From a virus (lineage: Duplodnaviria > Caudoviricetes), in IMG/VR virus record IMGVR_UViG_3300037497_000044, positions 1 to 52,006 of that record: a stretch of 52,006 nucleotides of DNA. One strand, given 5' to 3'. Below, one piece after another: positions 5,654 through 49,700 of the stretch. The position numbers and the translations under genes were made by a program. Each line of letters begins with the position of its first letter. Position 1 is the first letter of the stretch. Below the pieces are notes generated by a model. It had not been told where the DNA came from. It worked only from the letters and a program-made list of their open reading frames with translations, and ran no database searches.

Positions 5654-8600
5654 TCCCGCCCCCAGATACCACAGCAGCCAGGATTGTACAGCATTTCGGA
5701 GATGCCGCCGTCAGAATCAATCTCGTGTCAGTTGACCACGTTCCGTTAAGATGGACTGAATCCTCACTGTAACTGCCCCAAACACTGCCAGAAGTCACGG
5801 TCGTTCCGTCCTCAATAAGCGGCAATTCGTCCATATAGCTTGCTTCTTGCCCATATTGCAGACCTTGAGCGTGGGTGTTTAGCATGACCAAACCGACATG
5901 ATCAAGTCGTTGTCTTTGGGTAAGAGACACGCCAAGACCAAGGCCAAGTGCAAGCTTTGACGACTTGAATGTGGCTGTGTATGGCAAGCCGACAATGATG
6001 TTTACCGTTGTTTCGCTGACAGTTATTTGTCCAGATCCATTAACAACACCTGTGACTGCCAATTCCTTACTGTCTGTAACGTCCCACGCTTTAACCGTCT
6101 CGCCGATCAAATGCGTCAGGCCGGTTACTGTCGCGCTTGCGCTCTGCGTTTTTGTGACCGAGGCATCCGTTAAAACGGTTGTTGCCGTTCCCTTTCCTTC
6201 AGACTCCAACGCCCATCTTTCCAAGAACCTGACCGTGCTGCTGTTTATGTTCCTGGCAACAACATAATAAACCTGGTCCTCAACCGTCCCTGGGAGCACA
6301 ACAGCGTCTTCCACAACGCCATCGGTCTCGTATTCGATCCAGCAACTCACATCCTCCAGACGGTCCCGTATCATTATGGCAACCGTTCCGTCCGTTCGGA
6401 CGCAATGGATGCGAGTGTCAGGGATTCGCTGCACAACAACCCGCAAAAAAGGAGATTCCCCGATCTCTGGCACGATGGCTGTCAGATCCCCAGCAGAGTA
6501 TGAATATCCATCCGCAAGGCTCAACTCATAAACACGACTGCCGTTTCTGTGGACAAATACCCCGGAGATGTCAATCATAACAGCCTGGATGTCTGTTGAC
6601 CCAAGTGTTGATACAGGTTTCAGTGTGAACTGTGATGGAGTCAACGGCTCGTCCAGGCTAGAGCTTTTTGCAGAGAATATCTTACCTTGTGTGCCAACAA
6701 GCAACGTCCCAAGCGATAACATCCAGTTGATCTTATCGACAGGCCCAGATCCAATCGACCTCAATATTGGTCCAGAATCCCCCTCAACGGTCGAATCGAA
6801 CGAGTTAAATGTATCCGATACGCTCCCGTTCATCACATTCTTACCTGCCCACCACAATCGGCCATCATGCAGAACGACCGCCGACGGGAACCCCCTACGA
6901 GTGGACCATTGCCCTTCAGACCATTCAGAAGATGCAGTAGTTTTGCCAAACGGTTTTAGGATATCGACCTGTGCCACGGTTGAGCTTGTCACAGACGTAA
7001 CGCGGCATATGCCATCAATTGAACCAACGGCATAACTCAGACTGGCAACTATGGTGCCTGAAGTGTGGCCCGTGGCATCTACACCAACACGGTAATATAT
7101 AATCTGGTTATCAAGTGTATCGTTCCGTTCGTTGGCTGTTGTGTTGGTTGTGAAGGAGCTGACATTACCCCAATCGCCGATATCCCCAACACTCCTCTGT
7201 ATTCGGACAGTTCCAGACCAAGTGCCGGTAATGGTTAAATAATATTTCCTTGCATCGTCAATGCCTGTAACTTTAATCGGATCTGACCATGTTTCGTCGG
7301 TCGTGATTGTCACCTCAACTGACTGGCCTATCGAAGACACACGGAACAAAGACCCCGCGTTAGTGGATAGAAAATAAGGCTTTGACGCGGTTAATGTCGT
7401 GCTTCCGTTCAGTGCAGCAGGTGCCATCGTGATTGCGCCAAGATTTTCGGGAAGGAACGGCCCATCTTCTGTCAGATACTTGACTATTGACCATGAGTGC
7501 ATGGCCGTGGGACTGTATTGCCTCTCAATCCTGTATTGCTGCACCCCGTCACACGCAACAAAGACGACATCCCCGCTTTGATCGTATCGGATGTTTTTAA
7601 GATCGGCAGTTGCCCATGGACTGACAATTGACAGGTTTCCAGCATACACAATAGAAACGTCGCTTATCTGTGTGGCAGTCTTTCTGTTCGCCTTAAGTCT
7701 AAGGTAAAATTGATATGTTTCATCAATATGCGGGGTAAACGCTATGACGTGCTTCCCTTCCCTGAGAGTCATTTGCGGGATCAACTCCTCTCCCGCCGAT
7801 GTTCTGCCAACGGACAGAATAGCCACCCCTTTAAGCACAGTGATGCTGATGAAATGCTCAAGAGCAGATCCGGTAATCAGTTGCTCACGCCCCGCATAGC
7901 TCAACCCGTCGCTGCTAATCAGATTCAGATAGGTTGTCACATTGTCGATTGCAAATAGTTTTTGCACCCCGGCGGTCCAGCTTGTGACATCAGACCACGA
8001 TTTTAACGTGGTAAAGCTGGTGCCATCATCTGACCATTGAAGGCTGAACGCCTTGGGAGATTGTGTGATATCAGAACCAGAATTGCCAGGCATGAAACCC
8101 CATTCGGCCACAGCGACGGCGTTGCCTGAGCCAAAGTCATACTGGAACCAACATGGCATCGAGGGACTGGTGTTACTGATCCAATAGTCGGACGCACCAT
8201 TATCGTTGAATAGCTTGTAGGCCGTAGAGCTGTTGTGGGAGGCAGAAGCGGTTCCGCCGGTGCATTGATCGGGACCACCGACACTCCCCCGGAATTCGGC
8301 CTCATATCCACGGATAATGTTGTCAGGCGCAGTAGATTCTGTGATATAGATACGCCAATATCGATGGGTCCCACCACCAAGATCAACTATGGATGATACG
8401 CCGTTAGCCTCATCAACACCAGTCCAGTTTGTCAGGCTTTGGAACTGCCCGTTGCTGATACTGGTGCTGCTCAGATCGGGAACGGTGATATACGCATCGG
8501 ACACAACGGGGCGCACAAGCAAATTCGTGCATTCAAGCAACGCCTTGGAGTCCTGAGAAAAAACGAATGGGATATGGACGGTTGCGGCGGATGTGGATAT

Positions 8601-10178: not shown

Positions 10179-11024
10179 TTATTGGACAGCGTGGGCAGAG
10201 CCATCGTGGTTAATGATCAAAACGCCGTTGTTTTGCAGCAGCTTGGAACCCATCGTCGCACTGATGCGGGAGAAGAAGTACGCTTGCTCCTCATTGTATC
10301 CAATCACAGGCTGGAGTGCTTCCTTGTCCAAAGCATGTCCGATTGCGTTATAGTGCCAAATAATGCACTTTTCCGCGTTCGTGCCAAGCCCACTGAGCGC
10401 GGTACTGACCACCCAGTTGATATTCTGCCAATGAAACATCTTCTGCCGCCCAATAGCCTCGAATTTGTTGTCAGAAACGTAGTCTTTGGACGTGAACTGC
10501 CCAGCTTGGGTAAGGTAGGCATAGGCGGATGGTGTCATGGCACCAAAGATATTGCCATCCAGAGGCACATCGTTATTGCAAAGCATGGCCAATGCAGACG
10601 CAGCCAATGAAACCGTCATGATCTGCGATGCGCCGGTGTCGTTCGTTCCAGTCTCCAATGCGGTGATGATGGATGAATCGATCTTACGATTTAAAACCTT
10701 CATTCCACTCATTCGAGCGATACGGCGGCCATCTCCCTGGGATGAAAACAGATTAAAATCTGTTTTAAGAACAAGGTCATGCCACTCTTCAAGAGTGAGC
10801 GTATTGACATTCAGGTTGTCAGAACGGGCAGGGATAATACCGCTCGCGCTGCGAGTCACAGCAGACGCACCACCGGAATCGGCCACCAAAAACTTGGCAG
10901 TGTTGCCACTGATTTGCGCCTCGGTGGTGACCATCTTGCGAAAAAGCGTTTCCCCATTTTCAAACCCTTCAATAAACTCGGTTCGATATTGGGTTTTATA
11001 GGCAATGGTTGGATCGGTACTCAT
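10179..11024 (-). CDS. Major capsid protein (BPP-1-like)
   Basis: 281 aa; QYRTEF..FE..ETLFRK.V, LNRKIDSSII, HYNAIGHA, MGSKLLQNNGV; AGGAGG SD. Confidence 0.85.
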   Translation of the reverse strand: MSTDPTIAYKTQYRTEFIEGFENGETLFRKMVTTEAQISGNTAKFLVADSGGASAVTRSASGIIPARSDNLNVNTLTLEEWHDLVLKTDFNLFSSQGDGRRIARMSGMKVLNRKIDSSIITALETGTNDTGASQIMTVSLAASALAMLCNNDVPLDGNIFGAMTPSAYAYLTQAGQFTSKDYVSDNKFEAIGRQKMFHWQNINWVVSTALSGLGTNAEKCIIWHYNAIGHALDKEALQPVIGYNEEQAYFFSRISATMGSKLLQNNGVLIINHDGSAHAVQ

Positions 11025-11148
11025 GATAACCTCCTGAAGAAGTGAGTGATTTTTTTATCCTCTCGCTTAATGGGGTGGCCGTTCATGGAAAAAGCCAGGT
11101 GTCTTTTCAGGTTGGCTTTCTACAGATCTGGGACCATCGCTTTTGGAC

Positions 11149-11184
11149 TGTTGCAAATATGTCACAGTGTTGCAAAAATGTCAA
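11149..11184 (-). promoter_or_regulatory. Capsid promoter (TTGACA-17-CATATT) overlapped by two copies of a TGTTGCAAAWATGTCA operator-like motif
   Basis: Copies at 11149-11164 and 11168-11183; a third copy lies at 22552-22567. Confidence 0.55.
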
Positions 11185-11266
11185 CTGGTTTTTTTTGAAA
11201 GAGCTGGCATCCCGCTTTCAGTAAAGATTCGACGGCAAACCTTACCATAGCCGTTCGCTAAGTAAA

Positions 11267-11587
11267 CTAAGCTGTCTCCGCCGGAACAAAGTCTGGCAAA
11301 CCAAAGACAGGTGCTGCCTCAAACGTATTCGCGACTTCATCTGTCAGTTCGATTATTTGCGTCACCCCAAACAGCGTGGCCTCTGGCACACGGCATGACA
11401 TAACAAGCAGATTGGGGTATGTGGGATTAATATTTCCCCCAGCTAAGTCAAACGCCGTATAGCCCCCGTTCCAGTGCGGAATTTCACGTGCATTAGCGAG
11501 GGTTACGGTAGTGCCGTTAATCCTCACCAAGGTGCCAAAACAAATTCTTGCACCAATAAAAACCAAACATTTTTTATTTAAAGTCAT
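11267..11587 (-). CDS. DUF6948-like protein (paralogue of 34729-35010)
   Basis: 106 aa; FGTL...VTLANAREIPHWNG...FDLA.G...V.E..LFGVTQIIELTDE aligns by eye with the 34729 protein. Confidence 0.6.
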   Translation of the reverse strand: MTLNKKCLVFIGARICFGTLVRINGTTVTLANAREIPHWNGGYTAFDLAGGNINPTYPNLLVMSCRVPEATLFGVTQIIELTDEVANTFEAAPVFGLPDFVPAETA

Positions 11588-11606
11588 GTGATTTCATCCG
11601 TTTATG

Positions 11607-11957
11607 TTAAGTGGTAAACTCAACCCAATCCAACAAAGCCTCATCCCAATGCACCATGCCGCCAGGGTGGGGAATAGGCGGATCATATTGACATGTTTCC
11701 TCGTTCAATATCCAAGATGGGAAGGGCTGTGGGGAGATAAAAGCATCCCGCCCCGCATCATAAGTGTACCCAATACCGGCATAGTTTTTCCTAAAAGGAG
11801 TTCCACCAAGTCGATGAATGCCACCAAGGGTATTGTAGCTTGTCTGTTTCCAGACACCACCTTTTCGTAAAGCCACAGTTTCTTCTGTTTCGTCATCGCG
11901 AAACACTCCGACCCAAGTTACCTTATTGTCTGCGTCGAGTTTAGCAAAATGCGCCAT
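11607..11957 (-). CDS. Conserved phage tail-associated protein that typically follows glycine-rich tail proteins
   Basis: 116 aa; MAHFAKLD, WKQTSYNT, FRKNYAGIGYTYD..RDAFI.PQPFPSW.LNE motifs. Confidence 0.75.
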   Translation of the reverse strand: MAHFAKLDADNKVTWVGVFRDDETEETVALRKGGVWKQTSYNTLGGIHRLGGTPFRKNYAGIGYTYDAGRDAFISPQPFPSWILNEETCQYDPPIPHPGGMVHWDEALLDWVEFTT

Positions 11958-11966
11958 TTTAATCTC

Positions 11967-14399
11967 CTATACAGTTATCTCAAGCACCAATATACCAGAC
12001 CCACCATTTCCACTTAAGCTACCGAGTCCCCTGCCACCGCCACCGCCACCTCCACCAGTATTTGCTGTGGCATTACCGCCATTTTCATCGCCTTCACTAT
12101 AGATAGCACCCACTCCACCACCGCCCAACCCTCCTGGCCCACTCCCTTTCCCACCACCACCACCTCCTCCATAGTATGTTCCTGTGGACTTCCAGTTGAT
12201 ACCGATACCACCAGCACCCCCAGTAATTCCTGAAGCATTACCACCAACTGCGCCCAAACCGCCACCACCACCTCCACTATCGCCAGAACCACTACCAACT
12301 CCACCGTCATACCCTGGTGAACCAATGCCACGATTACCTGTATTGTTTTCGCTGGCCCCGCCGCCGCATCCCCCATCCCTACCTTTTACACCATTATAAC
12401 AGCCACCGCCACCGCCACCTAAAGAAGTTTGACCATTAAAAGTAGATGGAGATCCATTATTTGCCTGAACCTGCCCTACATATCCCGCACCACCAGCACC
12501 AATGTCAACAGGATATGATCCAGGAGTTAATGTAAGACCGTCAACTTTATAGTCTCCACCTGCGCCCCCACCACCTCCGCATACAGAACCGCCCGAACCC
12601 CCGCCTCCTATCATAAAGGCGTTACAAATCAAGGATGTGCCAATAAAATACGGCGCAGTTGCTCCGATAATAGACCGTGGCGCAGGAATAACAAGGTTTC
12701 CATCAACAGTAACTTTATAATAATACTTACCATTAATAGGGCCTGTAAGTGTTCCTCCCGTGATAGAAGCCAGCTCGATTACGCCTCCACCCCCCTTAAA
12801 AAAGATCGCCTGGGCTACTGCACTTGACATACCGTCAATCTGAGTTGTACCAAGCCCAGCTATCTGCGTAGTTGTGAGTAGCGCAGGCGCAGCAATCACC
12901 CCTTGCAACCCACTCAGAGCAGTTGTCGAAAACGCTGCCATCTGCGTACTGGTCATGCCCGCTATCGCCGTGGTTGGCAATGATGCAAATTGGGTTGCTG
13001 TCAACCCCTGCAAGGCTGCTGTCGTGAGCAACCCAACATGCACACTGGTCATTTGTTGGATCAGCGTACTTTCTAGAGATGAAACGTATATGGTGGAAAG
13101 TGCAGCGACCTCAGCCGTTGCCCAATCTGCCATTTGGGTGGTGGTGAGAGATCCACCAGCAGCAGTCTGGAACGCCGCAATCTGTGCCGTGGTGAACGTG
13201 GATGACAGTACCGCAACGTCTGCTTGCTGTGCGGCTGTCAGGTGGTATCGCTCGTCTCCAGCACCGCCTTGCAGACCATCCATGTCATTGTGCTGCGTGA
13301 TGAATGGCGTATCGAAGTGGGTGTAGTAGTTCGATCCACCATTGTACAGTGTGAAGTTTCTAGCGGTACCTGACGTGGTGACGGCAAAATACGCCGCAAC
13401 TATACTGTCTGTTGCGCCGATGACGAATGCAGGTTGGAACATCTGGCTCTCCAACTCCACCACAGAACCGGCAGTAGTGATGTCGGCAGATGTGTATGTG
13501 AACAGTAGATACAACATCGCCGTCAAATCAACCCCGGACACATTCACAAACGCCGGGTCGGTCAATGTCACAGTGACTTCAGTAGGCGACGTGTACCCAC
13601 TGATCCATGCAGTTTGTGTCGGTGTCTCGATGAGAGCTGCCAGCATGATACTGGCGTTCGCATCACCTGCAACGAACGGTGCGCCACCGGAAGCGGTTAA
13701 AGTGCGTGTTGCGCCGGCACCAGTGAATGTGACTGTGATGCCAGGCTTCAGAACTCGTTGATTAATGCGAATCTTTAGGTAATTATCGCCAGTTACTGCG
13801 GTGAGCAACACCCAGGAGTGGAAGTTCCATATGCCAGCAGGAATGGTCGTCCGCCCCAGTGCCGCAGAAGCATACCGCTCGATAAATGTTACACCACCAT
13901 CAACATCAGCATCAACAGCCACCAGAGTGGTGTTTTCCGCTATTGCAGACGGGACAGTTTGCAAAGTGGCGTTGTCGCTGGACATTACGGTATCATCCAG
14001 GTACATAGTCACAGCCGAACCAGCGACACTCGACGGTTCACCAACAACCCACGCCACACCATCATATTTAAGGGTGTTGCCAGTGGTGGGGACGCCAGCA
14101 CTGGTAAGGATCCCGGCAACCTGGGTAGTCGTCAACGCCCCTAACTGGGTTGTGCTCAGTGATTGTATCTGAGTCGTGGTCAGCGACGCAATGAGCGTGT
14201 TCTGCAACGACTCAATCGCAGTAGTTGATAGCGCGGCAACCGACTCCGTGCCAGCAGCCTTAGATACGGCGATTGCCAGTTGATCGAGCGCGATCTTTCT
14301 GCTGGCGGTGGCAGACGTGTCTGAGATCAACATCACGTCGTTTAATGCGGTGTTTGCCCCTGTTAATGCTGTCAAAGATGAAACTGGCTGGTTTCCCAT
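11967..14399 (-). CDS. Tail fibre/spike-like protein with LTTTQ repeat tracts and a C-terminal glycine-rich domain
   Basis: 810 aa; N-terminal VSSLTALTG..D..LISD.S...RKI anchor, HNDMDGLQGG..YHLT motif, two repeat tracts, and a GGGG-rich C-terminus ending ANTGGGGGG...GGSGILVLE. Confidence 0.8.
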   Translation of the reverse strand: MGNQPVSSLTALTGANTALNDVMLISDTSATASRKIALDQLAIAVSKAAGTESVAALSTTAIESLQNTLIASLTTTQIQSLSTTQLGALTTTQVAGILTSAGVPTTGNTLKYDGVAWVVGEPSSVAGSAVTMYLDDTVMSSDNATLQTVPSAIAENTTLVAVDADVDGGVTFIERYASAALGRTTIPAGIWNFHSWVLLTAVTGDNYLKIRINQRVLKPGITVTFTGAGATRTLTASGGAPFVAGDANASIMLAALIETPTQTAWISGYTSPTEVTVTLTDPAFVNVSGVDLTAMLYLLFTYTSADITTAGSVVELESQMFQPAFVIGATDSIVAAYFAVTTSGTARNFTLYNGGSNYYTHFDTPFITQHNDMDGLQGGAGDERYHLTAAQQADVAVLSSTFTTAQIAAFQTAAGGSLTTTQMADWATAEVAALSTIYVSSLESTLIQQMTSVHVGLLTTAALQGLTATQFASLPTTAIAGMTSTQMAAFSTTALSGLQGVIAAPALLTTTQIAGLGTTQIDGMSSAVAQAIFFKGGGGVIELASITGGTLTGPINGKYYYKVTVDGNLVIPAPRSIIGATAPYFIGTSLICNAFMIGGGGSGGSVCGGGGGAGGDYKVDGLTLTPGSYPVDIGAGGAGYVGQVQANNGSPSTFNGQTSLGGGGGGCYNGVKGRDGGCGGGASENNTGNRGIGSPGYDGGVGSGSGDSGGGGGGLGAVGGNASGITGGAGGIGINWKSTGTYYGGGGGGGKGSGPGGLGGGGVGAIYSEGDENGGNATANTGGGGGGGGRGLGSLSGNGGSGILVLEITV

Positions 14400-14530
14400 T
14401 AGGTGCTTCCCTCCTGCAAAATAAGTGTCCCATCTTCATTCAACAACAGGTCCGGCCCGCCTTCAAACTCAATGGAGTTTGAGAACAATACGCGTGGGTT
14501 GGGAGTGTGCCCGTTATTGTTCGCAATCAT
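14399..14530 (-). CDS. Small peptide preceding the fibre gene
   Basis: MIANNN...LLLNEDGTLILQEGST; stop overlaps the ATG of the next gene; start uncertain (track start 14584). Confidence 0.45.
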   Translation of the reverse strand: MIANNNGHTPNPRVLFSNSIEFEGGPDLLLNEDGTLILQEGST

Positions 14531-14570
14531 GGCTTGCTCTTTTTTGGATTTCAGTTTTCGCCGGTACATT

Positions 14571-16376
14571 TTAACCCTCCACAATAAACGTCAGTTCCAT
14601 GTCAAACATGCCATCATCCACAGCCCCGACAATCGTTAAAAGGATGTCACCGGTTCCTCCTGCCAACTGAGGATCTGGCAGGTGATACGGACCGCGAGAG
14701 TTATCAAAATACACCTGTCCAGACCCAGCAGGCATGCACATGATGATAGGGTCTTGTGTCGCGTAAAGTTGGGCAGATGACAACCCTTCCAGTTGCGTAG
14801 CGGCCAGGGATGCGACCTGAACGGAATCCAAACCATCAAGCTGGGTGACTGCCAGACTGGCCAATTGGATAGACGAAACCCCATCAAGTTGGGTAGCCGC
14901 CAATCCAACCAGTTGAGTGGTTGATAACCCATCCAGTTGTGTGGCAGACAGAGAACCGATCTGAACAGACGAAAGCCCGTTCATTTGTGTGACGGCCAAT
15001 GATGTCAATGCAACCGATGCCAATCCATCCAGTTGGGTAACTGCAAAGCCGGTCAATCGCGTCGATGCCAAACCATCAAGCTGTGTCGCTACCAAACTGG
15101 CCAGTTGCGTAGACAGAAGCCCGTCCAGTTGAGATACTTCCAAGCCTGTCAACTGGGAAGATGTCAGGCCATTCAACTGAGTAGCCGATAATGACGATAG
15201 ACTGACAGATGCAAGGTTATCAAGCTGGGTGTTGGCCAAGCTGGCCAATTGAATCGATGTCAGACCGTCCAACTGCGTAATCGCCAAGGAAAGCAGATTT
15301 GTGGAAGATAGTCCGCCCAAACCTGAATCAGTGATGACTGACAACTGTGCAGACGTTAATCCATCCAACTGCGTTGCTGATAGAGATCCGATCTGATCAA
15401 GAGTGAACCCTGCCACCTGCGTTGTGGTAAGAGCAGAAATAACGACTGATGTCAGGCTATCCAGTGTCGTGGTGGTCAACCCTGCCAAACCAGCAGAAGA
15501 AAGTCCAGCAAGTTGAGTGGCCGCCAATGAAAGGAGTTGCGCACCAGATAACCCAGCCATTTGACCAGAGGAGAGAATAGAGATCTGGATAGATGTCAGA
15601 CCGTCCAGTTGTGTGACAGAAAGGGATGAGAGTTGAGCAGAGCCAAGGCCAGCCAAGGCGGTTGTCGTGAACCCTGCCAACGCAGATGAAGTAATCCCAT
15701 CAAGCTGCGTCACTGAAAGACTGGACAACTGGGATGATGTCATGCCCGCAAGCTGTGTAGCAACCAATGCGGACAATTGCACAGATGTCAGTCCGTTTAA
15801 CGCAGCAACAGTCAAGCCTGAAATATTGACAGAAGACAACCCGTTTAGATGCGTATCAGAAAGCGATGTCAGTGCAACAGATGTCAACCCAGCCAGCTTG
15901 CCTGGAGCCAATGCAGATAGATGGGCAGAAGACAACCCGTCGAGCTGTGTAGCAGACAGAGACGCGAGTTGGCTGGACGTAATCCGATCCAACTGCGTCG
16001 CTGCAAGACTGGTTAACTGCGTTGATGTAATGCCATCCAACGCCTCTGATGTTAAGCCAGATATGTTGGTATTCAACCCATCCAACTGAGTGACTGCCAG
16101 AGACGAAAGTTGTGTTGAAGTCAGTCCTGCCAGCTGGGTAGCAGCCAATCCAGATATATGGGATGAGGAAAGTCCGTCCAACTGTGTGACGGCCAGTCCG
16201 GTCAATTGGGTAGAAGTCAAACCATCCAACTGGGTATTAGCCAAACTGGTAAGTTGGATGGATGTCAAGCCGCCAAGTGTCGAATCAGACAACGCCGAAA
16301 GGATTGATGAAGTCATCCCATCCAGGGTCGTTATAGCAGCAGCAGCGAGAGACGATGGGCCGTCGGTGTATGCCAT
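14571..16376 (-). CDS. 8-aa-periodic repeat protein (L-x-x-T-Q-L-x-G) fused to the C-terminal half of a small conserved phage protein
   Basis: 601 aa; about 540 aa of repeats then DPIIMCMPAGSGQVYFD...GGTGDILLTIVGA...FDMELTF; GGGAGT SD. Confidence 0.8.
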   Translation of the reverse strand: MAYTDGPSSLAAAAITTLDGMTSSILSALSDSTLGGLTSIQLTSLANTQLDGLTSTQLTGLAVTQLDGLSSSHISGLAATQLAGLTSTQLSSLAVTQLDGLNTNISGLTSEALDGITSTQLTSLAATQLDRITSSQLASLSATQLDGLSSAHLSALAPGKLAGLTSVALTSLSDTHLNGLSSVNISGLTVAALNGLTSVQLSALVATQLAGMTSSQLSSLSVTQLDGITSSALAGFTTTALAGLGSAQLSSLSVTQLDGLTSIQISILSSGQMAGLSGAQLLSLAATQLAGLSSAGLAGLTTTTLDSLTSVVISALTTTQVAGFTLDQIGSLSATQLDGLTSAQLSVITDSGLGGLSSTNLLSLAITQLDGLTSIQLASLANTQLDNLASVSLSSLSATQLNGLTSSQLTGLEVSQLDGLLSTQLASLVATQLDGLASTRLTGFAVTQLDGLASVALTSLAVTQMNGLSSVQIGSLSATQLDGLSTTQLVGLAATQLDGVSSIQLASLAVTQLDGLDSVQVASLAATQLEGLSSAQLYATQDPIIMCMPAGSGQVYFDNSRGPYHLPDPQLAGGTGDILLTIVGAVDDGMFDMELTFIVEG

Positions 16377-16378
16377 GG

Positions 16379-16621
16379 TTATACTCCCGTAGACGTGTAA
16401 TCGTAGGTTATTTTAATGCCAGAGTGCCCTGCAACAGCATATCGAGCCTCAGCCAAATGCAATGCAACGGGCACACCCCCACTTGGAGCAATCAGAGTAG
16501 ACCGATCAATCAAGATCTTGTTTGTCTCCCCGGCCCCGTCGCTGTGGCCAGACACATGGATCTTGATTGTCCTGGATCTGGCATACGATTCGATCACGGT
16601 AACAACGGTATTGTCAGCCAT
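16379..16621 (-). CDS. N-terminal half of a small conserved phage virion-module protein
   Basis: 80 aa; MADNTVVTVI...SGHSDGAGETNKILIDRSTL...IKITYD; abuts the scaffold gene stop; GGAG SD. Confidence 0.7.
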   Translation of the reverse strand: MADNTVVTVIESYARSRTIKIHVSGHSDGAGETNKILIDRSTLIAPSGGVPVALHLAEARYAVAGHSGIKITYDYTSTGV

Positions 16622-17551
16622 TTACTGCACTCCTTTGGCGGTCAATTCGCGGAAACGGGCTTGGTGTCTGGCAGCGTGTGGGCCTTTCCAATAATCTGAA
16701 TGGTCGCCTGCCATCAGCTTCTTTAAATCTGCATACTCTGTGGATGCTACGCCTACACTCCCGATGGAAGGGGTAACAGTTGCATCACCGCCGTTGAGTT
16801 TGGTATTTATCTCAGCCAGCCAAGTTATAAGATCAGCATTGTCAGCCAAAGGCATTCCGTTTCGGTCCACCCCGTTCATGATGGCCTCTCTGACCCCCTC
16901 TGGGGCAGAGTCAACGAAACGGAAAACACCGGCCAAGGTGCTATCGAGAGTTTGTTTGTCGCCAAAGGCACCTAGCAGTTTGGTTTCATTCTCCTCTCTG
17001 GCGGCCACTTCTTTTTGTGCCATGGCGGTCATAGAATCTGACTGCAATTTAAAATACTGCCCCAGAACCCCATTCAACTGATCGGGGTGTAGGTTCAGAT
17101 CTATTGCTGTCTTTTTGAAAATCTCAACCCCCTGCTTATCCAGATCGCTCAGAACCATGCCTTCGGCCAGCTTAACGTCATACTTTTCTGGTTCAGTCGG
17201 GATTCCGTTACTCTCGCGCCATGCCGTCAACTCATCTGGTTTCATGTCCGGTCGATAACCGCCTTTGAATTCGCCTGTGCGGATCTTGGCTTGCGCTTCC
17301 ACCAAGGCATTCAAAGCATCTTCATGGGTCTTGTACCGGCTCAAAGCGGCCTGTTTTTTTGCATCCCCTCCAGCTATCTTTTCCATCAACCCTTCGGGCC
17401 AGCCAGACACATCCGCCGTTGGTTTTGCGACGGAAGATACGGATGCCAGCAGCGTGGCGCTTTGTTCTGCCGGTGCGACGGTGGCAATAGGGGCATCTGT
17501 AGCAGGGGCAGCATTGTCTGCCTGGGCAACGTTTTCGATTTCTTCAGCCAT
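16622..17551 (-). CDS. Capsid assembly scaffolding protein
   Basis: 309 aa acidic and helical; G.PTEPEKYD, FKKTA.DLNLHPDQ, DYWKGPH motifs; follows portal and the Bbp19-like gene. Confidence 0.75.
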   Translation of the reverse strand: MAEEIENVAQADNAAPATDAPIATVAPAEQSATLLASVSSVAKPTADVSGWPEGLMEKIAGGDAKKQAALSRYKTHEDALNALVEAQAKIRTGEFKGGYRPDMKPDELTAWRESNGIPTEPEKYDVKLAEGMVLSDLDKQGVEIFKKTAIDLNLHPDQLNGVLGQYFKLQSDSMTAMAQKEVAAREENETKLLGAFGDKQTLDSTLAGVFRFVDSAPEGVREAIMNGVDRNGMPLADNADLITWLAEINTKLNGGDATVTPSIGSVGVASTEYADLKKLMAGDHSDYWKGPHAARHQARFRELTAKGVQ

Positions 17552-17810
17552 GTCTCAAATCCTTTAAAATAACATCAATTGGTAGTTTTTCCGCGCGCTT
17601 AATATGCGCCCCAACAAACCGCCGCCCTTCGTTGAACGCCGTCACACGATCATTATCAGCATCGAAAGACTGCTCTCCCACCATGCAAAGGTTGTTTACT
17701 ATCCATTCCATGCCCATAATCTGCTGTTCTGGGCTAGCCGTTCCTGCTGACATCGCCTTGATTGCCGTGATAGTTGGCAGATTAGTCGTAACGGTAAAGC
17801 ACTTATTCAT
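17544..17810 (-). CDS. Bbp19-like small protein
   Basis: 88 aa from ATG 17810, overlapping the portal stop; SF..D...TAFNEGRRFVG motif. Confidence 0.7.
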   Translation of the reverse strand: MNKCFTVTTNLPTITAIKAMSAGTASPEQQIMGMEWIVNNLCMVGEQSFDADNDRVTAFNEGRRFVGAHIKRAEKLPIDVILKDLRHG

Positions 17811-19456
17811 AGCCCACCCTGCCCAACAGTTGGAGAAGCTTCTTTGATCGTCTTGGCCACATCGGCCCCCTGCTGCATCATTGCCAGCATTTGCTGCGTC
17901 TGCTGTTCTTTCGCTCGCGCCTCGGACAATCGGCGCACAGTATCTTTGTCCCGCATCCATGCCTTTGGTGAGACAGCAGAAAGTGCATCTCGAACAGCCA
18001 GTGCGTTATCCAGTATCAGTATGGTATTTTCGTCGAATTGCACCGCTTGAGCGAGTATCTGCCACGCCTCCATTAACTGACCGACCTTGATTTTTTCCAA
18101 CGCATCACGCAACGGGGATTCAAACGAAAACGTGAACTCTGCCCCACCCAGTGTTTCTGGCATACCCTCCAGCATGCGTGGCTCTTCTCTCATCAGAATT
18201 TCAAGCGTAGTCTCGCACAATCGCCCGTTATACTCAGACTCCATAGGCTCAAACAGAGTCACAGCGTGTCGGGTATACTCCTCCATGCGCCGAGCAACTT
18301 CGGTTGCAGTCATAACCTTGCCGTCAACCGGGGGTAGCGTGAGTTTGCTGATATAAAACGCATCCGCCAATTGGGTGCGGATGTCAGCGATCAATTCAAG
18401 CCCGATGGGTATATTTGAATGAGGATCTGACAAAGGCTCGATAATTTTACCAGTCCTATCGTCATAGGCTCGATCCACGATTGTGATGCCGCCAGGATAC
18501 AAAGCAACATCCCCGACAATCGCGCCATCCACCGCAGTCATTGGCGGCTTGATAGCCATCTTTGCAGCATCAAGTACAGTTGCCGTTACATCCTGAATCA
18601 ATCGTGCATCCGGCAACCCGGCGACAGACGCAGGGGATGAAGCGTATTGGCTTCCGCTTGACATGGACCAACGCGGTATGACGTATGGATTGGTCCAGAT
18701 GCCAACCATTTCTATGCAATGCACGTTTGCCACATCCACATAGCATGATACGTATGGCTGCAAGAATTTCTTCCCACCGCATACTTTCATCCATACCGAT
18801 GTGGGCATGACGCAATGGATAACGTTAATCTCTTTGTATGGATCTTTATCAATCAGTTTAGTCACTTCACTATGAACGGTTTTTGGAAACATCCCTGCCA
18901 AATCAACCGCCGTCGGAAGCCAACGCCTATACACAGTAGATGCGTTACCCTGGAGGTCTTCCATCCACGCCACATCACGCAAATGCCAGCACCTAAACAG
19001 GATGTTTCTGTGCTCTTTTAGATATTCAACAGAGAGTACCGCCTGCCCGAATGCGGCAAAATCTCTATCTGCCTCGGTTGTGGCGCGGGCAAACAGGCTC
19101 TCCCGTTGCCCCATTACGTTGCGTAGGAATATCTCTGTGCGCTCCAACCATTGCTTTTCTGGCGTATCGTCGTCAGATTCTGGTGATCGAGTTGTGCGAA
19201 TGTGGAACCATGGCTTTGCGGTCGGGCGCAACATGGCCCCAAACGCATTACCCAGATCACGACAAACAAGAATCGTGTAGGAGGTCATCAACCCATCGCA
19301 CAACTCATCCCCTATCGACCGGCCAGTTGTGAAATTGGCGCGCTCTGGGTGAAACATTTCAGCAATTTTTTGGTTGAGATTGTCAAGACCCTGTTTTTTT
19401 TCAAACAGTTTATTGCATTGGCTGATGACACTCTTGACGTATTCCATGCTACCCAC
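17807..19456 (-). CDS. Portal (head-to-tail connector)
   Basis: 549 aa; LRPTAKPWF, AAFGQAV, PYVIPRW...G..Y..SP, MTATEV..R..E, FESPL motifs of T7/BPP-1-type portals. Confidence 0.9.
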   Translation of the reverse strand: MGSMEYVKSVISQCNKLFEKKQGLDNLNQKIAEMFHPERANFTTGRSIGDELCDGLMTSYTILVCRDLGNAFGAMLRPTAKPWFHIRTTRSPESDDDTPEKQWLERTEIFLRNVMGQRESLFARATTEADRDFAAFGQAVLSVEYLKEHRNILFRCWHLRDVAWMEDLQGNASTVYRRWLPTAVDLAGMFPKTVHSEVTKLIDKDPYKEINVIHCVMPTSVWMKVCGGKKFLQPYVSCYVDVANVHCIEMVGIWTNPYVIPRWSMSSGSQYASSPASVAGLPDARLIQDVTATVLDAAKMAIKPPMTAVDGAIVGDVALYPGGITIVDRAYDDRTGKIIEPLSDPHSNIPIGLELIADIRTQLADAFYISKLTLPPVDGKVMTATEVARRMEEYTRHAVTLFEPMESEYNGRLCETTLEILMREEPRMLEGMPETLGGAEFTFSFESPLRDALEKIKVGQLMEAWQILAQAVQFDENTILILDNALAVRDALSAVSPKAWMRDKDTVRRLSEARAKEQQTQQMLAMMQQGADVAKTIKEASPTVGQGGL

Positions 19457-37050: not shown

Positions 37051-39276
37051 ATGAGCGCGTATAGTGATTTTGTTGCATCAAAAGCGTTAAAATCAGTCAG
37101 TGTTGGATTTGAACCGGATTTTATCCACAATCAAATGAAGGATTTTCAGAAGGCAACTTTAAAGTATTGTTGCCGGAAAGGAAGATCCATGGCTGCGTTA
37201 GATACAGGTCTCGGCAAGACGTTCCTGCTCTTGTCGTGGGCGCAAAACGTGTTCAACAAAACAGGTAAGCCGGTGATCTGTTTTGCTCCCCTGTGCGTCG
37301 GGCAGCAGACCGAAAAAGAAGCTGAACGGTGGGGGATCGTTGCAAAATATTATCTGGAGGATTGCGATTTTGAAACGCCTATCGTGATAGCCAATTACGA
37401 GAGGATTCACAAATTTGATTTTTCAAAATTCGCCGGAATCGTGCTGGACGAATCAGGGATCATCAAGGGGTTGGACAGCAAGATTAAAAAGCAACTGATG
37501 GATGTGGCTACTGATATCGAATATCGCCTATGCTGTTCTGCCACGCCAGCACCAAACGACTACATGGAGATTGGAGCACAAGCTGAATTCTTGGGTGTAA
37601 TGTCGATGGTTGATATGTTAGCTACATTTTTCACGCATGATTCCAGCGAAATAAGCAAATGGACGCTGAAAGGCCATGGGAAAGTGGCTTTTTGGGAATG
37701 GATGGCAACATGGGCTGTTGTGATCAAAAAGCCGTCTGATATTGGGTTTGACGATGCTGGATACGACCTGCCGCCATTGAATATGATCATCCACACGATT
37801 GAATCTGATGCCACTCCTGGCAGATTGGTAGCGGTCGAGGCAGGAGATCTGAGAGAGCGTCTGGACGCTCGCCGCCGATCTGTTGATGTCAGGTGCCAGA
37901 CAATAGCAGACATGGTCAACGCCAGCACAGAGTCATGGGTGGTGTGGTGCCATCTGAACGATGAGGGTGATTTTTTGGAAAAACTGATTCCTGGATCGGT
38001 TCAGGTTGCTGGCCGTCATTCAATCGATAAAAAAGAGCGTGATATTTTTGCTTTCACCAACGGCCATGTTAGGGTTTTGATCTCAAAAGTTTCTATCGCA
38101 GGATACGGGATGAACTGGCAGCATTGTCACAATATGGCCTTTGTGGGGATCAATGACAGCTTTGAGGAGTTTTATCAAGCTATCCGGCGAGAGTGGAGAT
38201 TTGGACAGCAGCATCCAGTCAATGTGCATGTGGCTGTTACTGAGGAGCAATTATCTGTTCTTCGTAATATCGAAAAAAAGCAGGAAAAGAACGATGTTAT
38301 GTCACAGATGATGATTGGCCACATGCGGCCAGCCATGGCCAACGAGTTCATCGGGAGCACAAAAACATCAGACATCTACCAAATTGGAGATGTTGTAGGT
38401 AGTGGGTGGACATTAATGCTCGGTGATTGTGTGGATCGGATCAAGGATATTCCAGATAATTCAGTTGGGTTTTCCGTTTTTTCTCCACCGTTTGCGAGTC
38501 TCTATACGTACTCTGCCAGCGATAGGGACATGGGTAACGTGCGGTCCCATTCTGAATTTTATGCGCACTTCCAATTCCTTATCGTTGAATTGATGCGCGT
38601 GATGGAGCCGGGGAGAAACGTGTCATTTCACTGTATGAATCTCCCAACAAGCAAGATGCGTGATGGTGTGATTGGGTTGACAGATTTCCGAGGGGAATTA
38701 ATCCGCATGTTTATATCTGCCGGATTTATCTATCATTCTGAAGTCTGTATATGGAAAGATCCTGTTATTGCTATGCAGCGCACAAAGGCATTGGGATTGC
38801 TGCACAAACAGATTAAGAAGGACTCGTTGATGTCGCGCAACGGCATCCCTGATTACGTTGTGACGATGCGCAAGCCTGGGGTAAACGCTAACCCAGTGAG
38901 CCAATCTCCAGAGGCAAGAGATGTGAACAAATGGCAGCGGTGGGCATCGCCTATCTGGACAGACATAGACCAGGGAAAAACGCTCAACCGGAAAGACATA
39001 TTAGGTATTCCTCTCAAAAAAGATGAGGATGACCAAAAGCACATATGCCCGCTTCAGCTTGATGTGATCGAGAGGCTTGTCGGGTTGTGGTCAAACAAAG
39101 GGGATCTCGTTTTGTCGCCGTTCGCTGGCATCGGATCGGAGGGATTCCAGGCAATAAAAATGGGCCGTCGGTTCATTGGTATCGAACTAAAAAAACTATA
39201 TTTTGACCAGGCAGTTAGAAACATCTCATATTCTGTAAATGGCGGCGGACAGAAATCGCTTTTTGATGTGGATTAA
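37051..39276 (+). CDS. SNF2-like helicase fused to an amino-DNA methyltransferase (N4-C/N6-A, beta class)
   Basis: DTGLGKT, VLDES, SATPAPND, GMNWQ, QAIRREWRFGQ; then GDC, FSPPF, HICPLQ, VLSPFAGIGS, FIGIEL in one ORF. Confidence 0.9.
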   Translation: MSAYSDFVASKALKSVSVGFEPDFIHNQMKDFQKATLKYCCRKGRSMAALDTGLGKTFLLLSWAQNVFNKTGKPVICFAPLCVGQQTEKEAERWGIVAKYYLEDCDFETPIVIANYERIHKFDFSKFAGIVLDESGIIKGLDSKIKKQLMDVATDIEYRLCCSATPAPNDYMEIGAQAEFLGVMSMVDMLATFFTHDSSEISKWTLKGHGKVAFWEWMATWAVVIKKPSDIGFDDAGYDLPPLNMIIHTIESDATPGRLVAVEAGDLRERLDARRRSVDVRCQTIADMVNASTESWVVWCHLNDEGDFLEKLIPGSVQVAGRHSIDKKERDIFAFTNGHVRVLISKVSIAGYGMNWQHCHNMAFVGINDSFEEFYQAIRREWRFGQQHPVNVHVAVTEEQLSVLRNIEKKQEKNDVMSQMMIGHMRPAMANEFIGSTKTSDIYQIGDVVGSGWTLMLGDCVDRIKDIPDNSVGFSVFSPPFASLYTYSASDRDMGNVRSHSEFYAHFQFLIVELMRVMEPGRNVSFHCMNLPTSKMRDGVIGLTDFRGELIRMFISAGFIYHSEVCIWKDPVIAMQRTKALGLLHKQIKKDSLMSRNGIPDYVVTMRKPGVNANPVSQSPEARDVNKWQRWASPIWTDIDQGKTLNRKDILGIPLKKDEDDQKHICPLQLDVIERLVGLWSNKGDLVLSPFAGIGSEGFQAIKMGRRFIGIELKKLYFDQAVRNISYSVNGGGQKSLFDVD

Positions 39277-45082: not shown

Positions 45083-46759
45083 TTAGCCAACTTTCCAGAT
45101 TTTAACATCAGCGTACTTGTTTATCAACGAATAATTGGTTGAGCTTAACGCTTTGCCTCCACCTACAGTCCCATCACCATTTCCGCACCAGTGAGTTAAA
45201 ACGAATCTCCTGCTGTCTGATGTACCTATCGTTATGGTGAAATAGCCAGACACGCTCAAAGCAGAAGAACCGTCGTATCCACTCGATGCTTGCCCACTAC
45301 TGCTATAGCATCTGTCTGTTTCTGAACCGTTTTGCTGAATTATGGCAATAAGAATATTGCTATCTCCCTTATAGTTGACTGATGATGCTTCAAACTGGTA
45401 AACCCCGTCTGGAAAGCCTCTAATTTCGCTGGAGTCGCCAGAATAAACAAGTCCGATATTATTAACCTTCGGTGCATCAAAAGCCCTATAATAATAAGTG
45501 TCATTCACTGTTGCGCCACCAGACACACCTTCGGATTCTGTGGCTTCCGCCCAAAAAAAACGGGTGTACAACGCTGGTCCAATGCCGGCCATCATCGTCG
45601 TTGTCATACCGGCGATCTGTGTTGACGGCAGTGCGGCTATGTAGGTTGTGGTTTCCGTGAGAGCGGATACCTGTGTTGTTGTCAGCAACTGCCCGGATGC
45701 TAATTGCGCAATCTGCGTCGTCGTGAGCTGGCCAACCGCCGCCATCTGGCTTGACGACAGTTGCGCTATCTGTGTTGTGCTTAACTGTCCGACAGCGGCC
45801 ATCTGGTCAGACGATAGTTGTGCAATCTGTGTCGTCGTTAGCTGCCCTATGGCGGCCACTTGGGAGGATGATAATTGCGCTATTTGCGTCGTGGTAAGTT
45901 GCCCTATAGCCGACACCTGGGCAGACGACAACTGAGAAATTTGCGTCGTAGTCAAAGACCCTATGGCCGACATCTGGCTTGATGATAGCTGCGCAATCTG
46001 TGTCGTCGTGAGCTGGCCAACAGCAGACAGTTGGTCTGATGATAGCTGTGCAATCTGTGTCGTCGTCATCGTGTTTAGGACGGCAACCTGGGCAGAATCC
46101 AAGCTGGCTATCTGCGTGGTGGTCAGATATTGGGTTTGAGTTGTTGCCAGAAGAGAGATCTGCCCGGTTGTCAGATGGCGATATGTGCCCGTGTTCAGCC
46201 CGCCCAACGAGTCGTGGTTGATCTGTGCAGCCAACTGCAAGGCACTGTTGATCGTTGAAATCTGTGCAGGTGTCAAAAGTTGGATTGTCGCTGTTGGGAG
46301 CAATCCGTATTGTGTGGAATTCAGGTGCATGTATGGCCCGGCGTTCAGTCCCAACAGGTCATCATGGGTATAGTTCGCCCCCACTTGGAGATAAGCAGGG
46401 CCGAACGCGATGGATGTTGTCCCGACAATAATCTCTCCTGTGGTCGTGACCTGGAAGATGTTTTTTGCATAGAGCGTTCCACCGGTCACGCCAACGATTG
46501 TGCCTGTGACTACATCCCAAAAGCCATCAAAATCATAATCCCGTTGCCATGCCGTTGCGCTCGCACGGTAAACACCGTTTTCAACTCCGTTCGTCTGTGC
46601 AGGGACGAGGACACGCATATCAGTTGTCGTCTGCACCCCGTCAATGATCTGCAACCCACGGAGCATTATGTTCCCTGCGGCAGACGCACACGCACACGGC
46701 ACCTTGATTGCCTGGGAACCGTTTAGCCCTTTTAATCTGTCCCCGCTAACTGTGGTCAC
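45083..46759 (-). CDS. Tail fibre protein with 19-aa LTTTQIAQLSS repeats
   Basis: 558 aa; N-terminal K.PC..AS..NI.L.GLQ.IDG...RVLV..QT...ENGVY...W.R..D anchor; two HD.L.GL...Y.HL motifs; central repeats; C-terminal beta domain ending YADVKIWKVG. Confidence 0.85.
   Translation of the reverse strand: MTTVSGDRLKGLNGSQAIKVPCACASAAGNIMLRGLQIIDGVQTTTDMRVLVPAQTNGVENGVYRASATAWQRDYDFDGFWDVVTGTIVGVTGGTLYAKNIFQVTTTGEIIVGTTSIAFGPAYLQVGANYTHDDLLGLNAGPYMHLNSTQYGLLPTATIQLLTPAQISTINSALQLAAQINHDSLGGLNTGTYRHLTTGQISLLATTQTQYLTTTQIASLDSAQVAVLNTMTTTQIAQLSSDQLSAVGQLTTTQIAQLSSSQMSAIGSLTTTQISQLSSAQVSAIGQLTTTQIAQLSSSQVAAIGQLTTTQIAQLSSDQMAAVGQLSTTQIAQLSSSQMAAVGQLTTTQIAQLASGQLLTTTQVSALTETTTYIAALPSTQIAGMTTTMMAGIGPALYTRFFWAEATESEGVSGGATVNDTYYYRAFDAPKVNNIGLVYSGDSSEIRGFPDGVYQFEASSVNYKGDSNILIAIIQQNGSETDRCYSSSGQASSGYDGSSALSVSGYFTITIGTSDSRRFVLTHWCGNGDGTVGGGKALSSTNYSLINKYADVKIWKVG
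45690..46070 (-). repeat. 57-bp-period coding repeat, about 6-7 units
   Basis: LTTTQIAQLSSxQxxAxGQ repeated; codons are diverged between units. Confidence 0.85.
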
Positions 46760-49700
46760 TTCCTGAACTCCTTGCCTGCCAAAATAGACAGAACAGCCTC
46801 GGTATCGTCTTCCGGTCGATACTTCCCTGCCTCAATGTCAGCCCAAAGAGCCAAGCGATCCGTGACGGGTTTTTGTAGTGCTGTGCCGGTGATCACAGCG
46901 ATCATCGCACTCATTGATCTGATTGTTCTTCCTGGAGTCCCTAACGGATCGTCGTTTGTAAATACTCGCAATCCCTGTTCCACAAGACTTTGCGCCGGAC
47001 CACCCATATTTACCCTCGCTTCTCCATATCCTTTCTGCCACACATTAATCATGTTTCCGATCACATTACCTACCACTGGTATGGCTCCGAGAGCATACGT
47101 GACTGGCATGATCCCAAGCAATTGTTTGATCCACTCATCCAAATATTCGCCGTCACCGTCGCTATCTCGCGGCCCTCCACGCGCAGCCATGACAATTATA
47201 CCGGAGGCAATGGCGGGAGCTATCCATGCGAGCCAAGCCGCACCGGCCAACCGGCCAAACTTCTTCCCTGGGGGCATGTATCTGGCAAGAGCAACTTGCT
47301 CCCCAAACAAGTTTGCCTGCGTGTTGAAATAGCCACAAAATTGGGTCAGCATCCGCCACAAAGGCGTTCCTGTCTCCATGGATGCAACATCAATAACCCT
47401 GGTACTTCCCTGTGTGGTGCGAATTACTGAGTCAGCAAGATCTCTCGCGGCACCCTCCTCATGCCCATTCTCAATTGCCTCTGTATATTTTGCCATCCAG
47501 ATCGTTGGTTCCATGTGCGTTGCGATGGATTGCTGCAAGATGTATCCATACTTTCTCGATAACCTATCTGCGTTTTCCATGATAGTCGGATCTGTTGCAA
47601 TCTCCATCAGCACGGTGTTGGCTTCCTCCAGTTGCGCTTTCAGTCTGATGTCCATGAATTTCGATTTACCACATACCGCACTTGCCGTATCAATTGGATG
47701 GATAAGGTTCGTGGCAGCAGAAGCCAATAAATGCCCTCGTGAAACATTGAGCAATGCGGGGAAGAACCCTGCATATTGCTGGAGCCCGTTTACAACATTC
47801 ATGAATAGAAGAAAAACACCTGAACGAGTTCGCAGAGTTGTAAAAAAATCAGCATGTTCAATCCCTGTGCCACGTGTCGTAACCTGCTGTTTAGCAGCCC
47901 GGTCTAGGAATGGGACGAGCGTATTACTGATTGCCGCCTTGTCTTGTGCTTCCAGCACAGAGAGCAATTCCTTATTTTTGATCAACCTACCCACATCGGA
48001 AACGGCCAACCCCATGTATGTGTTCAGTAATTGCTGGTCGATATGACGCCCCAAGATTGAGATATTCAACTCAAGGGGGGCAAAATACTGGGTACGTGCC
48101 TTTGCGAATCCTGCGTTCGTCCTAGGTTGGTAATTCAACTGCGCATCACTCCCAACACGTTCAGCCTCGCGTTGTTCTGCGGCTGTGCCCAGGGTAGGAT
48201 CATATTGCAATGGCGCATAGCCGCCAGCATACGTACCAAACTGGTTGGTGAATGCGTCAGCCTTAACCTCTTTAAAGTACCTGCCAGTCTGTTCCCTGAC
48301 TGCTCTCTGGGCTTCTGGCTTCATCTCCTCAAACAGATCCCAAACAGACTGCACAAAATCAAAGTGCTCTTTCCGAAGGATTCCCTGATCGATAAACTCC
48401 TGGATCTGAGCATCCCAACGGGACCGATCAAGGGTGCCGTCTGCATTCCACTTGCCCCACCCTCGGCCAATCAACAGTTTTTCAAGATTCTCCAGGTTGC
48501 CCGAATGCACAAGGGCATGAAGTAGCTCGGCCATCGGGGTGAATTTCCCGCCGCCAAACACAAACCCGATATGATTGGCAGCAATCGCGCCTTTATGCTG
48601 AAAGACTTTCGGATTCGATTTAACCATGTCAGAAAACTTTGTTATATATTTTATCTTTGCTTCCATGTATTTCGTTTGGGCATCGGATATGGGAAGGAAG
48701 ACATAGCGGAACCATGGCCCGTACTCTTGCCCATTATCCATGACTTTGGCCCAATTCTCTATGCGGACGAATTTTGCCAAAAACTTTGAAGCACCATAAA
48801 AGAATAACTCTGTTTTTGTTCGTGTTCTGGCAAACCCCGTTTTCTCGTCCACGATAGCTGGGGAGCTTGGGCGTTCTTCGGCTTTAGCTGTCAACTCTGC
48901 GATAACCGCATCGACGGCAAGTTTTTTATCCTTAACAAGGATCTGCTTTGACCGCAACGCAAACTTCCATAGACCAACCATGTCATCTCTGAGATCGCGC
49001 AATTCCTCCATTGTCAGATCACGCCACAACTCCTTGTCTTTCCCTTGCTTTTTCGACAGGATTTCTTTGGCTTTGTTGCTGGCGTTCAATATCGTGTCAG
49101 AATACTCCTGGAGTTCCTCCGGGGAGTTTTTTAGCACGGTTTGAAGGTACTCAATAGCCCCTTCCATATGTGGTCCAATCCCGTATGCGCCAAGCACAGT
49201 ACGCACAACCATGACCTCGACATCAGATCTGCTTTTAACTGATGGTGATTTATCTGTCCTGCTGGCTATGCCCTTCAGCTTTCCTGTAATGAGCGTTGCT
49301 TCCGCTTGCGCCTTGTATGCCGCCGATGTGGCCAGATGGTTGATAAGTTCCTTACGTGCCTCTATCGCGGCTTCTGCTGTCTTGCCTTGGCCGAACAGCT
49401 TCATCTTGGCCTTTCCTGCCCGAACCTCGGCCAGAGCGAACAGATCCGGTCTGACATTGCGCATGGTCCGTCCAGAGATCATTGCATCAACATAGTCCTT
49501 GGCTGACTTCAGCAATACAGACCATGGCCCTGTGAATTTCTCCAGTGCGGCAATTTCCGTCGCAAGGATTCTCTCCCTGGCTGAATTGTGGATTGCCTCG
49601 TCTGCGGCTATGGCGATCTGTTCCGGCGTGTACATGTCGCCGTAGGTCTCAAGCATGCGACGCTCGGTCTCTTGTTGGATCTCTTCTGCCATTGATGGAG

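Follow-up and report, generated by a model that had tools for sequence, protein, structure and literature searches.

Adjacent cistrons in a metagenomic podovirus record match complementary halves of one predicted jelly-roll domain, with a long ALTTAQ repeat arm ahead of the second half

Phage head fibres and decoration proteins, such as phi29 gp8.5, T4 Hoc, epsilon15 gp10, the KHP40 cement protein and the HFTV1 turret, use a small capsid-binding module that carries or forms a projection. In donor-strand complementation in chaperone-usher pili, and in engineered split-protein display, an incomplete beta-sandwich is completed by strands of another chain. In one review (PMC7602432) head fibres are described as an aid to attachment, and epsilon15 gp10 appears there among predicted beta-jellyrolls. 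Here we describe two adjacent open reading frames (ORFs), ORF A and ORF B, in the head module of a podovirus represented by IMG/VR record IMGVR_UViG_3300037497_000044. The window analysed is the complete record of 52,006 bases (CheckV completeness 100%). Sequence comparison gives a solid case for reading the two cistrons as complementary halves of one jelly-roll domain, with an arm of ALTTAQ repeats preceding the C-terminal half. The pair and its parts are as follows.

16621..16379, minus strand: ORF A, 80 residues, N-terminal half of the jelly-roll family (predicted strands 1–5; profile positions 1–75, E 3.4e-19)
16376..14571, minus strand: ORF B, 601 residues
16374..16390, minus strand: junction, with a GGGAG Shine-Dalgarno (SD) sequence, the ORF A stop TAA, CC and the ORF B ATG (sequence and second assembly)
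14751..16376, minus strand: ORF B residues 1–541, a short N-terminal lead and about 33 ALTTAQ units of 16 residues (PF20080), predicted to be all-beta at moderate confidence
14571..14750, minus strand: ORF B residues ~542–601 and stop, C-terminal half of the jelly-roll family (predicted strands 6–9; E 1.6e-10)

The initial annotation of this region, made from its letters alone, took the two pieces for the N- and C-terminal halves of one phage protein of about 130 residues, and database comparison bears this out. A phmmer search with ORF A against 1.84 billion representative proteins (E ≤ 0.001) returned 21 proteins: ORF A itself, a 704-residue protein that was set aside as low complexity, and 19 proteins of 105–151 residues that ORF A matches over their N-terminal ~75–86 residues. 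A family profile of 132 positions was built from 18 members, leaving out a truncated protein of 105 residues. ORF A aligns to profile positions 1–75 (hhalign, probability 99.2, E 3.4e-19), and the last 79 residues of ORF B align to positions 61–129 (probability 96.9, E 1.6e-10), of which columns 61–72 fall on the last repeat unit, convincing homology starting from about column 73, after the final ATQ. Because ORF A ends at position 75 and the ORF B homology starts near position 73, the pieces abut to within about three residues. Profile comparison places both halves in the same family and on complementary parts of it (positions 1–75 and ~73–129 of the 132), neither in different families nor on overlapping parts.

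The end of ORF B is also found by a hidden Markov model of the C-terminal half (E 1.1e-10), and is 41% identical over 70 residues to family member P0002 (BLASTP, E 7e-14); ORF A is likewise 41% identical to this protein, and members among themselves share 35–56% identity. ORF A retains all six invariant family residues (D3, S27, D28, G29, G31 and E32), and the end of ORF B keeps the G-D...LT motif and the aromatic-D-I block, with a nearly invariant Y replaced by F. Judged by these alignments, both halves are as conserved as ordinary family members. No second copy of either half is present in the 52-kb record. The pair thus resembles the family in that both halves align to it, in keeping the SDG.GE and TGD..LT motifs, and in lying in the head module beside the scaffold gene, but every other copy examined is one ORF, the family form being a single chain of 129–151 residues, whereas the window has two cistrons with ~525 residues of repeats before the C-terminal half.

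We then scanned the fetched family loci with separate profiles for the N- and C-terminal halves. A single ORF encodes both halves in 80 of the 80 other family loci, and only the window has them in two ORFs and two frames. An AlphaFold model of the family (from a 58-row alignment) is a confident nine-strand beta-sandwich (predicted local distance difference test, pLDDT, 90.5; predicted template modelling score, pTM, 0.84), in agreement with the fold proposed earlier. Since predicted strands at positions 69–74 and 80–85 of this model flank the break, it is predicted to fall in the hairpin turn between strands 5 and 6; member P0012 has a 4-residue insertion in the same hairpin loop. In one further locus (L066), within a phage structural region, the same domain makes up the C-terminal end of a large protein: a 689-residue protein (5918–7987), the last 117 residues of which match profile positions 16–130 (probability 97.6, E 4.3e-12), is followed directly by a stand-alone family copy of 133 residues (8001–8402). 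Its N-terminal part of ~570 residues has no Pfam match. L066 differs from the window in having an unbroken domain within a single chain, cargo other than ALTTAQ repeats and a full-length copy alongside; the large and small L066 proteins may co-assemble.

The junction between the two cistrons looks like an ordinary gene boundary. ORF A stops with TAA at 16381..16379, which is followed by CC and by the ORF B ATG at 16376..16374, and the SD of ORF B, GGGAG, ends 7 nt before this ATG; the initial reading of a new ORF with its own SD 2 nt beyond the end of the 80-residue ORF is therefore accurate. ORF A itself has AAGGAG 8 nt before an ATG that directly follows the scaffold TAA, and the ORF B TAA is separated by one base from the ATG of a downstream 56-residue ORF. 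The ORF A/ORF B junction resembles these other junctions of the operon, and ORF A and ORF B are probably translationally coupled. In the window, SD-like motifs precede 23 of 54 ORFs as against 266 of all 2005 ATGs; nearly all ATG-started structural genes are preceded by such a motif, and the ORF B start is typical of its neighbours.

Residues ~17–541 of ORF B (~525 residues) form about 33 units of 16 residues. Each unit consists of two halves of 8 residues; the self-identity of the tract is 0.46 at lag 16 and falls to 0.33 at lag 8. In Pfam the tract matches the ALTTAQ repeat PF20080 in 11 stretches (E 1.6e-20; 72.9 bits, gathering score 26.4) and, more weakly, the LRR_EndoS model (E 3.6e-11). 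DNA copies of the units are only 60–83% alike and Tandem Repeats Finder reports no DNA tandem repeat in the tract, which argues that it is old and not freshly expanded. A single-sequence AlphaFold model of ORF B is all-beta, with pLDDT of 60–79 in the repeats and 44–53 in the last 60 residues, the C-terminal half alone being predicted to fold poorly; the model has no Foldseek match at E ≤ 0.001 and gives only faint rows resembling leucine-rich repeats. ORF B shares its repeat type with an 810-residue neighbour (27–43% identity between the repeats of the two proteins); the neighbour ends in a Gly_rich_2 domain, whereas ORF B, which scores above the PF20080 gathering level, ends in half of a jelly-roll. 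Our literature search found no paper on ALTTAQ repeats.

Evidence for translation of ORF B comes from contigs of a seawater run (X3; 151–180 nt, 93–98% alike) that cover parts of the repeats. Read in the frame of ORF B, they change 20 codons, 16 of them synonymously, compared with 1–10 in the other five frames, and we conclude that ORF B is translated and constrained. A 272-nt contig of a freshwater run (X2) is identical to positions 15251–15522. The X2 and X3 contigs represent small shares (0.05) and lie within the repeats (15065–16242), with the junction outside their coverage, so that they have no bearing on the split in relatives; samples assigned to other habitats may nevertheless contain close relatives of ORF B.

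The family to which the halves belong is abundant, with at least 579 IMG/VR loci, and occurs in many uncultured tailed phages and in Pelagibacter myophages; its matches in the ESM Atlas and BFVD are to uncharacterised or hypothetical virus proteins only. We know of no solved structure of a member, and a sequence match in the PDB (8ugc, 'FD15', 0 stretches) was dismissed as compositional. The family model has no Foldseek match in the PDB at E ≤ 0.001. A fold search with it lists the STIV turret protein (Z 8.9, root mean square deviation 3.0, 104 aligned), Ena spore fibres (Z 7.9), the HFTV1 turret (Z 7.2, deviation 2.8, 95 aligned) and the KHP40 cement protein (Z 6.6, deviation 3.5, 99 aligned), with the turret and cement matches sitting among cupins, carbohydrate-binding modules and nucleoplasmins of similar Z.

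Gene context is more informative. The family gene could be placed among flanking ORFs in 76 of 80 loci, with one representative annotated per cluster. A cluster whose representative matches 'major head protein' lies one to three genes upstream in 41 of the 76; downstream, 18 have a head-maturation-protease cluster and 15 a scaffold cluster. The homologue in Pelagibacter phage HTVC008M is gp087, annotated 'hypothetical protein' (L102 5001–5387), between the portal and prohead protease genes. The cultured T4-like pelagiphages HTVC008M and Mosig EXVC030M both have a single-chain family member in this position, the one that prohead core genes occupy in T4. The window pair also lies in a head module, directly after the scaffold gene and upstream of the major capsid protein (MCP) gene. 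The family is a head-module protein, and we infer that it sits on the capsid surface.

On balance, we lean towards an interpretation in which the products of ORF A and ORF B fold together and serve as the anchor of a fibre on the virion. ORF A would supply strands 1–5, and ORF B the repeats followed by strands 6–9; the two chains would rebuild the jelly-roll by fragment complementation, and the rebuilt domain would be placed on the virion, most likely at the capsid surface. An adhesion fibre, the repeat arm, would then project from the former surface loop; through the split the arm would gain a free N-terminus, with no loop to close around a long rod. The simplest origin would be insertion into the loop of the 5' part of a fibre gene together with its start signals. 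We put forward more tentatively the fuller proposal of an evolved two-chain jelly-roll, in which coupled halves rebuild a capsid-binding module and a beta-rich ALTTAQ rod of ~525 residues leaves the former outward-facing hairpin.

Several observations weigh against this interpretation. Complementarity of the halves is no proof of function, because an insertion of foreign DNA leaves halves that are equally complementary, and the purifying signal is confined to the repeat tract, with the junction and both half-domains outside it. Two-chain structure prediction with ORF A and the last 72 residues of ORF B gave an interface score (ipSAE) of 0.47 in the median run, while the best of three controls scored 0.00; in the three runs at least 93% of contacts agree and the partner pLDDT is at least 58. 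Among 80 solved complexes 58 reached the pass mark of this score, as did 2 among 110 mismatched pairs, but at scores of 0.60 or below only 7 of the 80 solved complexes pass along with both of the passing mismatches, and these calibration counts are only approximate here, where our own alignments were used. The prediction thus lends weak support to co-folding, and its place in this weak band counts against the interpretation. Of the earlier proposal, the complementary halves, the beta-sandwich fold, the predicted break in a loop and the separate start signals of ORF B find support, whereas reassembly from two chains, a role of the pair as display anchor and a fission favoured by selection are putative; a fragment of a fibre gene may instead have landed inside the gene.

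The family itself offers little guidance on function. None of the 18 members in the profile (~135 residues) matches a PHROG at E ≤ 0.01, Pfam has no entry for it and returns only scattered single matches, and the jelly-roll is generic and assigns no function because all of the fold matches have Z of 8.9 or less and stand among other jelly-rolls of similar Z. The split is also unnecessary for carrying cargo, since L066 fuses cargo to the N-terminus of a whole domain. Finally, the split arrangement is a single instance in one metagenomic record: no second split form or half-only relative was found in word-index, IMG/VR or JGI metagenome scans, and the word-index search gave no fused family form of 266–2000 residues, although this last is weak evidence. 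With ORF A the word-index search returned only ORF A itself, and it found no relative of the ORF B C-terminus of 330–1052 residues; single-protein scans of IMG/VR and JGI metagenomes gave no close relative of either half, and DNA and tblastn searches of a phage collection gave nothing significant for ORF A, the ORF B C-terminus or the 5.5-kb region. The sole match of the scans (L101) is an unrelated bacterial locus and was discarded.

The setting of the pair bears on the first alternative. The structural genes on the minus strand run in the order portal, Bbp19-like, scaffold, ORF A, ORF B, 56-residue ORF, 810-residue protein, 116-residue protein, 106-residue protein, MCP, and tail tubular proteins A and B, with the following features.

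19456..17807, minus strand: portal (PF12236, E 2.1e-61)
between portal and scaffold, minus strand: Bbp19-like gene
17551..16622, minus strand: scaffold
14402–14569, minus strand: 56-residue ORF, basic at its N-terminal end, lying between ORF B and the 810-residue gene
11967–14399, minus strand: 810-residue protein with ALTTAQ repeats and Gly_rich_2 (PF21722, E 1.9e-11; phrog_2295)
11024..10179, minus strand: MCP
11025..16621, minus strand: accessory block, ~5.6 kb between the scaffold and MCP genes, without counterpart in relatives recognised by their portals (from the scaffold–MCP spacing in these relatives)
3203–4069 of contig L082: further example of a scaffold–MCP insertion

The accessory block contains ORF A, ORF B, the 56-residue ORF, the 810-residue ALTTAQ and Gly_rich_2 protein and the 116- and 106-residue proteins. 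We compared it with 19 contigs whose portals are 37–50% identical to that of the window; a scan with the half-profiles finds neither half-domain encoded in any of them. Scaffold and MCP matches are both present in 16, and lie less than 400 nt apart in 13 of these; the gap is 0.9, 0.9 and 4.3 kb in the remaining three and 5.6 kb in the window. An HNH endonuclease occupies the gap in L099 (12965–13863), and 4.3 kb of unrelated genes that in L095 (13318–17642). Scaffold and MCP genes in this podovirus group flank an insertion hot spot, and because the spacing is wide here and short in most relatives, the split pair is part of an accessory block within it. This setting is compatible with an acquired fibre module and with an insertion accident alike.

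Two other members of the block deserve mention. The 56-residue ORF has GGAGGG 5 nt before its ATG, its TAA overlaps the ATG of the 810-residue gene (TAATG), and it has no Pfam match. The 810-residue protein has ALTTAQ blocks at ~40–100 and ~400–530, an unassigned middle part and a C-terminal glycine-rich domain. The protein is probably another fibre belonging to this block.

An insertion accident would mean that a fragment of a fibre gene, with SD, ATG and ALTTAQ repeats, landed by illegitimate recombination in an accessory head gene, leaving ORF A as an orphan N-terminal stub and ORF B as a chimera with a passenger half-domain, so that the jelly-roll is never rebuilt. The hot spot, with its HNH gene in L099 and 4.3 kb of other genes in L095, provides an occasion for such an event, and the family gene is evidently dispensable in this lineage, being held by none of the 19 portal-relative loci. 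The arrangement is unique among 81 family loci and has no second form in database searches, the fusion to the C-terminal half would be in frame with a one-in-three chance, and the support for co-folding is weak. What speaks against a broken gene is its state of preservation: both pieces are intact ORFs with good SDs, the six invariant residues persist in ORF A, neither half is more diverged than ordinary members, and the repeat tract is old, by its 60–83% DNA likeness, and under purifying selection. We regard a disrupted gene, with pieces yet to decay, as unlikely, albeit the main alternative.

A second alternative is that recoding joins the two frames into one polypeptide of ~680 residues, by a -1 shift within the final 10 ORF A codons, for example P-site slippage on G GGA, in which case the repeats would be an insertion within a loop. 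T7-type phages, for instance, make a capsid variant by -1 frameshifting. The frame of ORF B is -1 relative to that of ORF A, as had been noted, and it is open for just 12 codons upstream of the ATG (16412..14574 from stop to stop), so that it overlaps the end of ORF A, and the overlap includes a G GGA string. However, the initial annotation had seen no canonical slippery heptamer, and reading the 31-nt overlap (16412–16379) by eye we too find no in-frame heptamer of the type X XXY YYZ. Nor is there a stimulatory RNA structure downstream (minimum free energy -24.9, mean of shuffled sequences -26.3, z +0.40, with 128 of 200 shuffles folding as well or better). Just past the stop there is an ATG with a complete SD, and a long rod within a hairpin loop would be hard to close. 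We consider recoding improbable. Hopping was also considered and rejected on the sequence of the junction, and a split intein pair was rejected given that a Pfam scan finds no intein family at E ≤ 1 in ORF A or ORF B and that ORF A is family-like up to its stop.

As to the assembly, a 34,937-nt contig produced by a second assembler (Logan, run X1) spans positions 14300–17600 with 0 differences and 0 gaps at a mean depth of 72; since X1 is the probable source run, this check concerns the assembler and not the sample, and a comparison of contigs cannot reveal rare indel variants, which is a further point against a functional split. The least probable explanation, and a very doubtful one, is that a single-base indel close to the TAA interrupts what is really one ORF with an insertion in the loop, for although the record is assembled from a metagenome and the junction was compared on contigs, not raw reads, the two assemblers agree, the junction lies outside the repeats, the error would have to create a stop yet leave an ATG with an SD spaced as at true starts, and ORF A aligns with the family in its own frame up to its last residues.

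Elsewhere in the window, the contig ends at 2–2476 and 46756–52005 (both minus strand) encode N- and C-terminal parts of one giant protein of ~2,570 residues, and match phrog_9880 at positions 23–654 and 949–2227. Because the two ends carry parts of one protein, the record is circular or circularly permuted and is cut inside the giant gene. A 741-residue protein at 37051–39276 (plus strand) unites DNA helicase and DNA methyltransferase parts (phrog_16, phrog_67), and a second helicase-like gene, of 518 residues, follows it.

If the chains do co-fold, the pair would be a rare natural example of one small beta-sandwich split mid-fold and still used, and would show a route by which a long fibre is grafted onto an existing virion module. 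It would give a first functional handle on a family found in at least 579 IMG/VR loci and on ALTTAQ repeats, and the break-tolerant loop of this abundant, unnamed head-module family would be a ready site for split or loop display. If the gene is merely disrupted, the arrangement is an ordinary by-product of the insertion hot spot. We know of no other natural mid-fold split of a small beta-sandwich domain in a phage structural protein, and a literature search, which did not extend to supplementary files, found no precedent for a split, still-used phage structural domain.

The head fibres and decoration proteins with which we began have no sequence relationship to the jelly-roll family, and the Z values linking them to it lie in a range common for any jelly-roll; to our knowledge, none of phi29 gp8.5, T4 Hoc, epsilon15 gp10, the KHP40 cement protein and the HFTV1 turret consists of two half-domain chains. 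Pili and split-protein display offer an analogy, with the difference that here the gene of one domain is cut roughly mid-way, in a pair that is known from its sequence. On the fuller two-chain proposal, a decoration protein would have become a head fibre without its buried termini being touched, and the pair would be a natural counterpart of engineered split-protein display.

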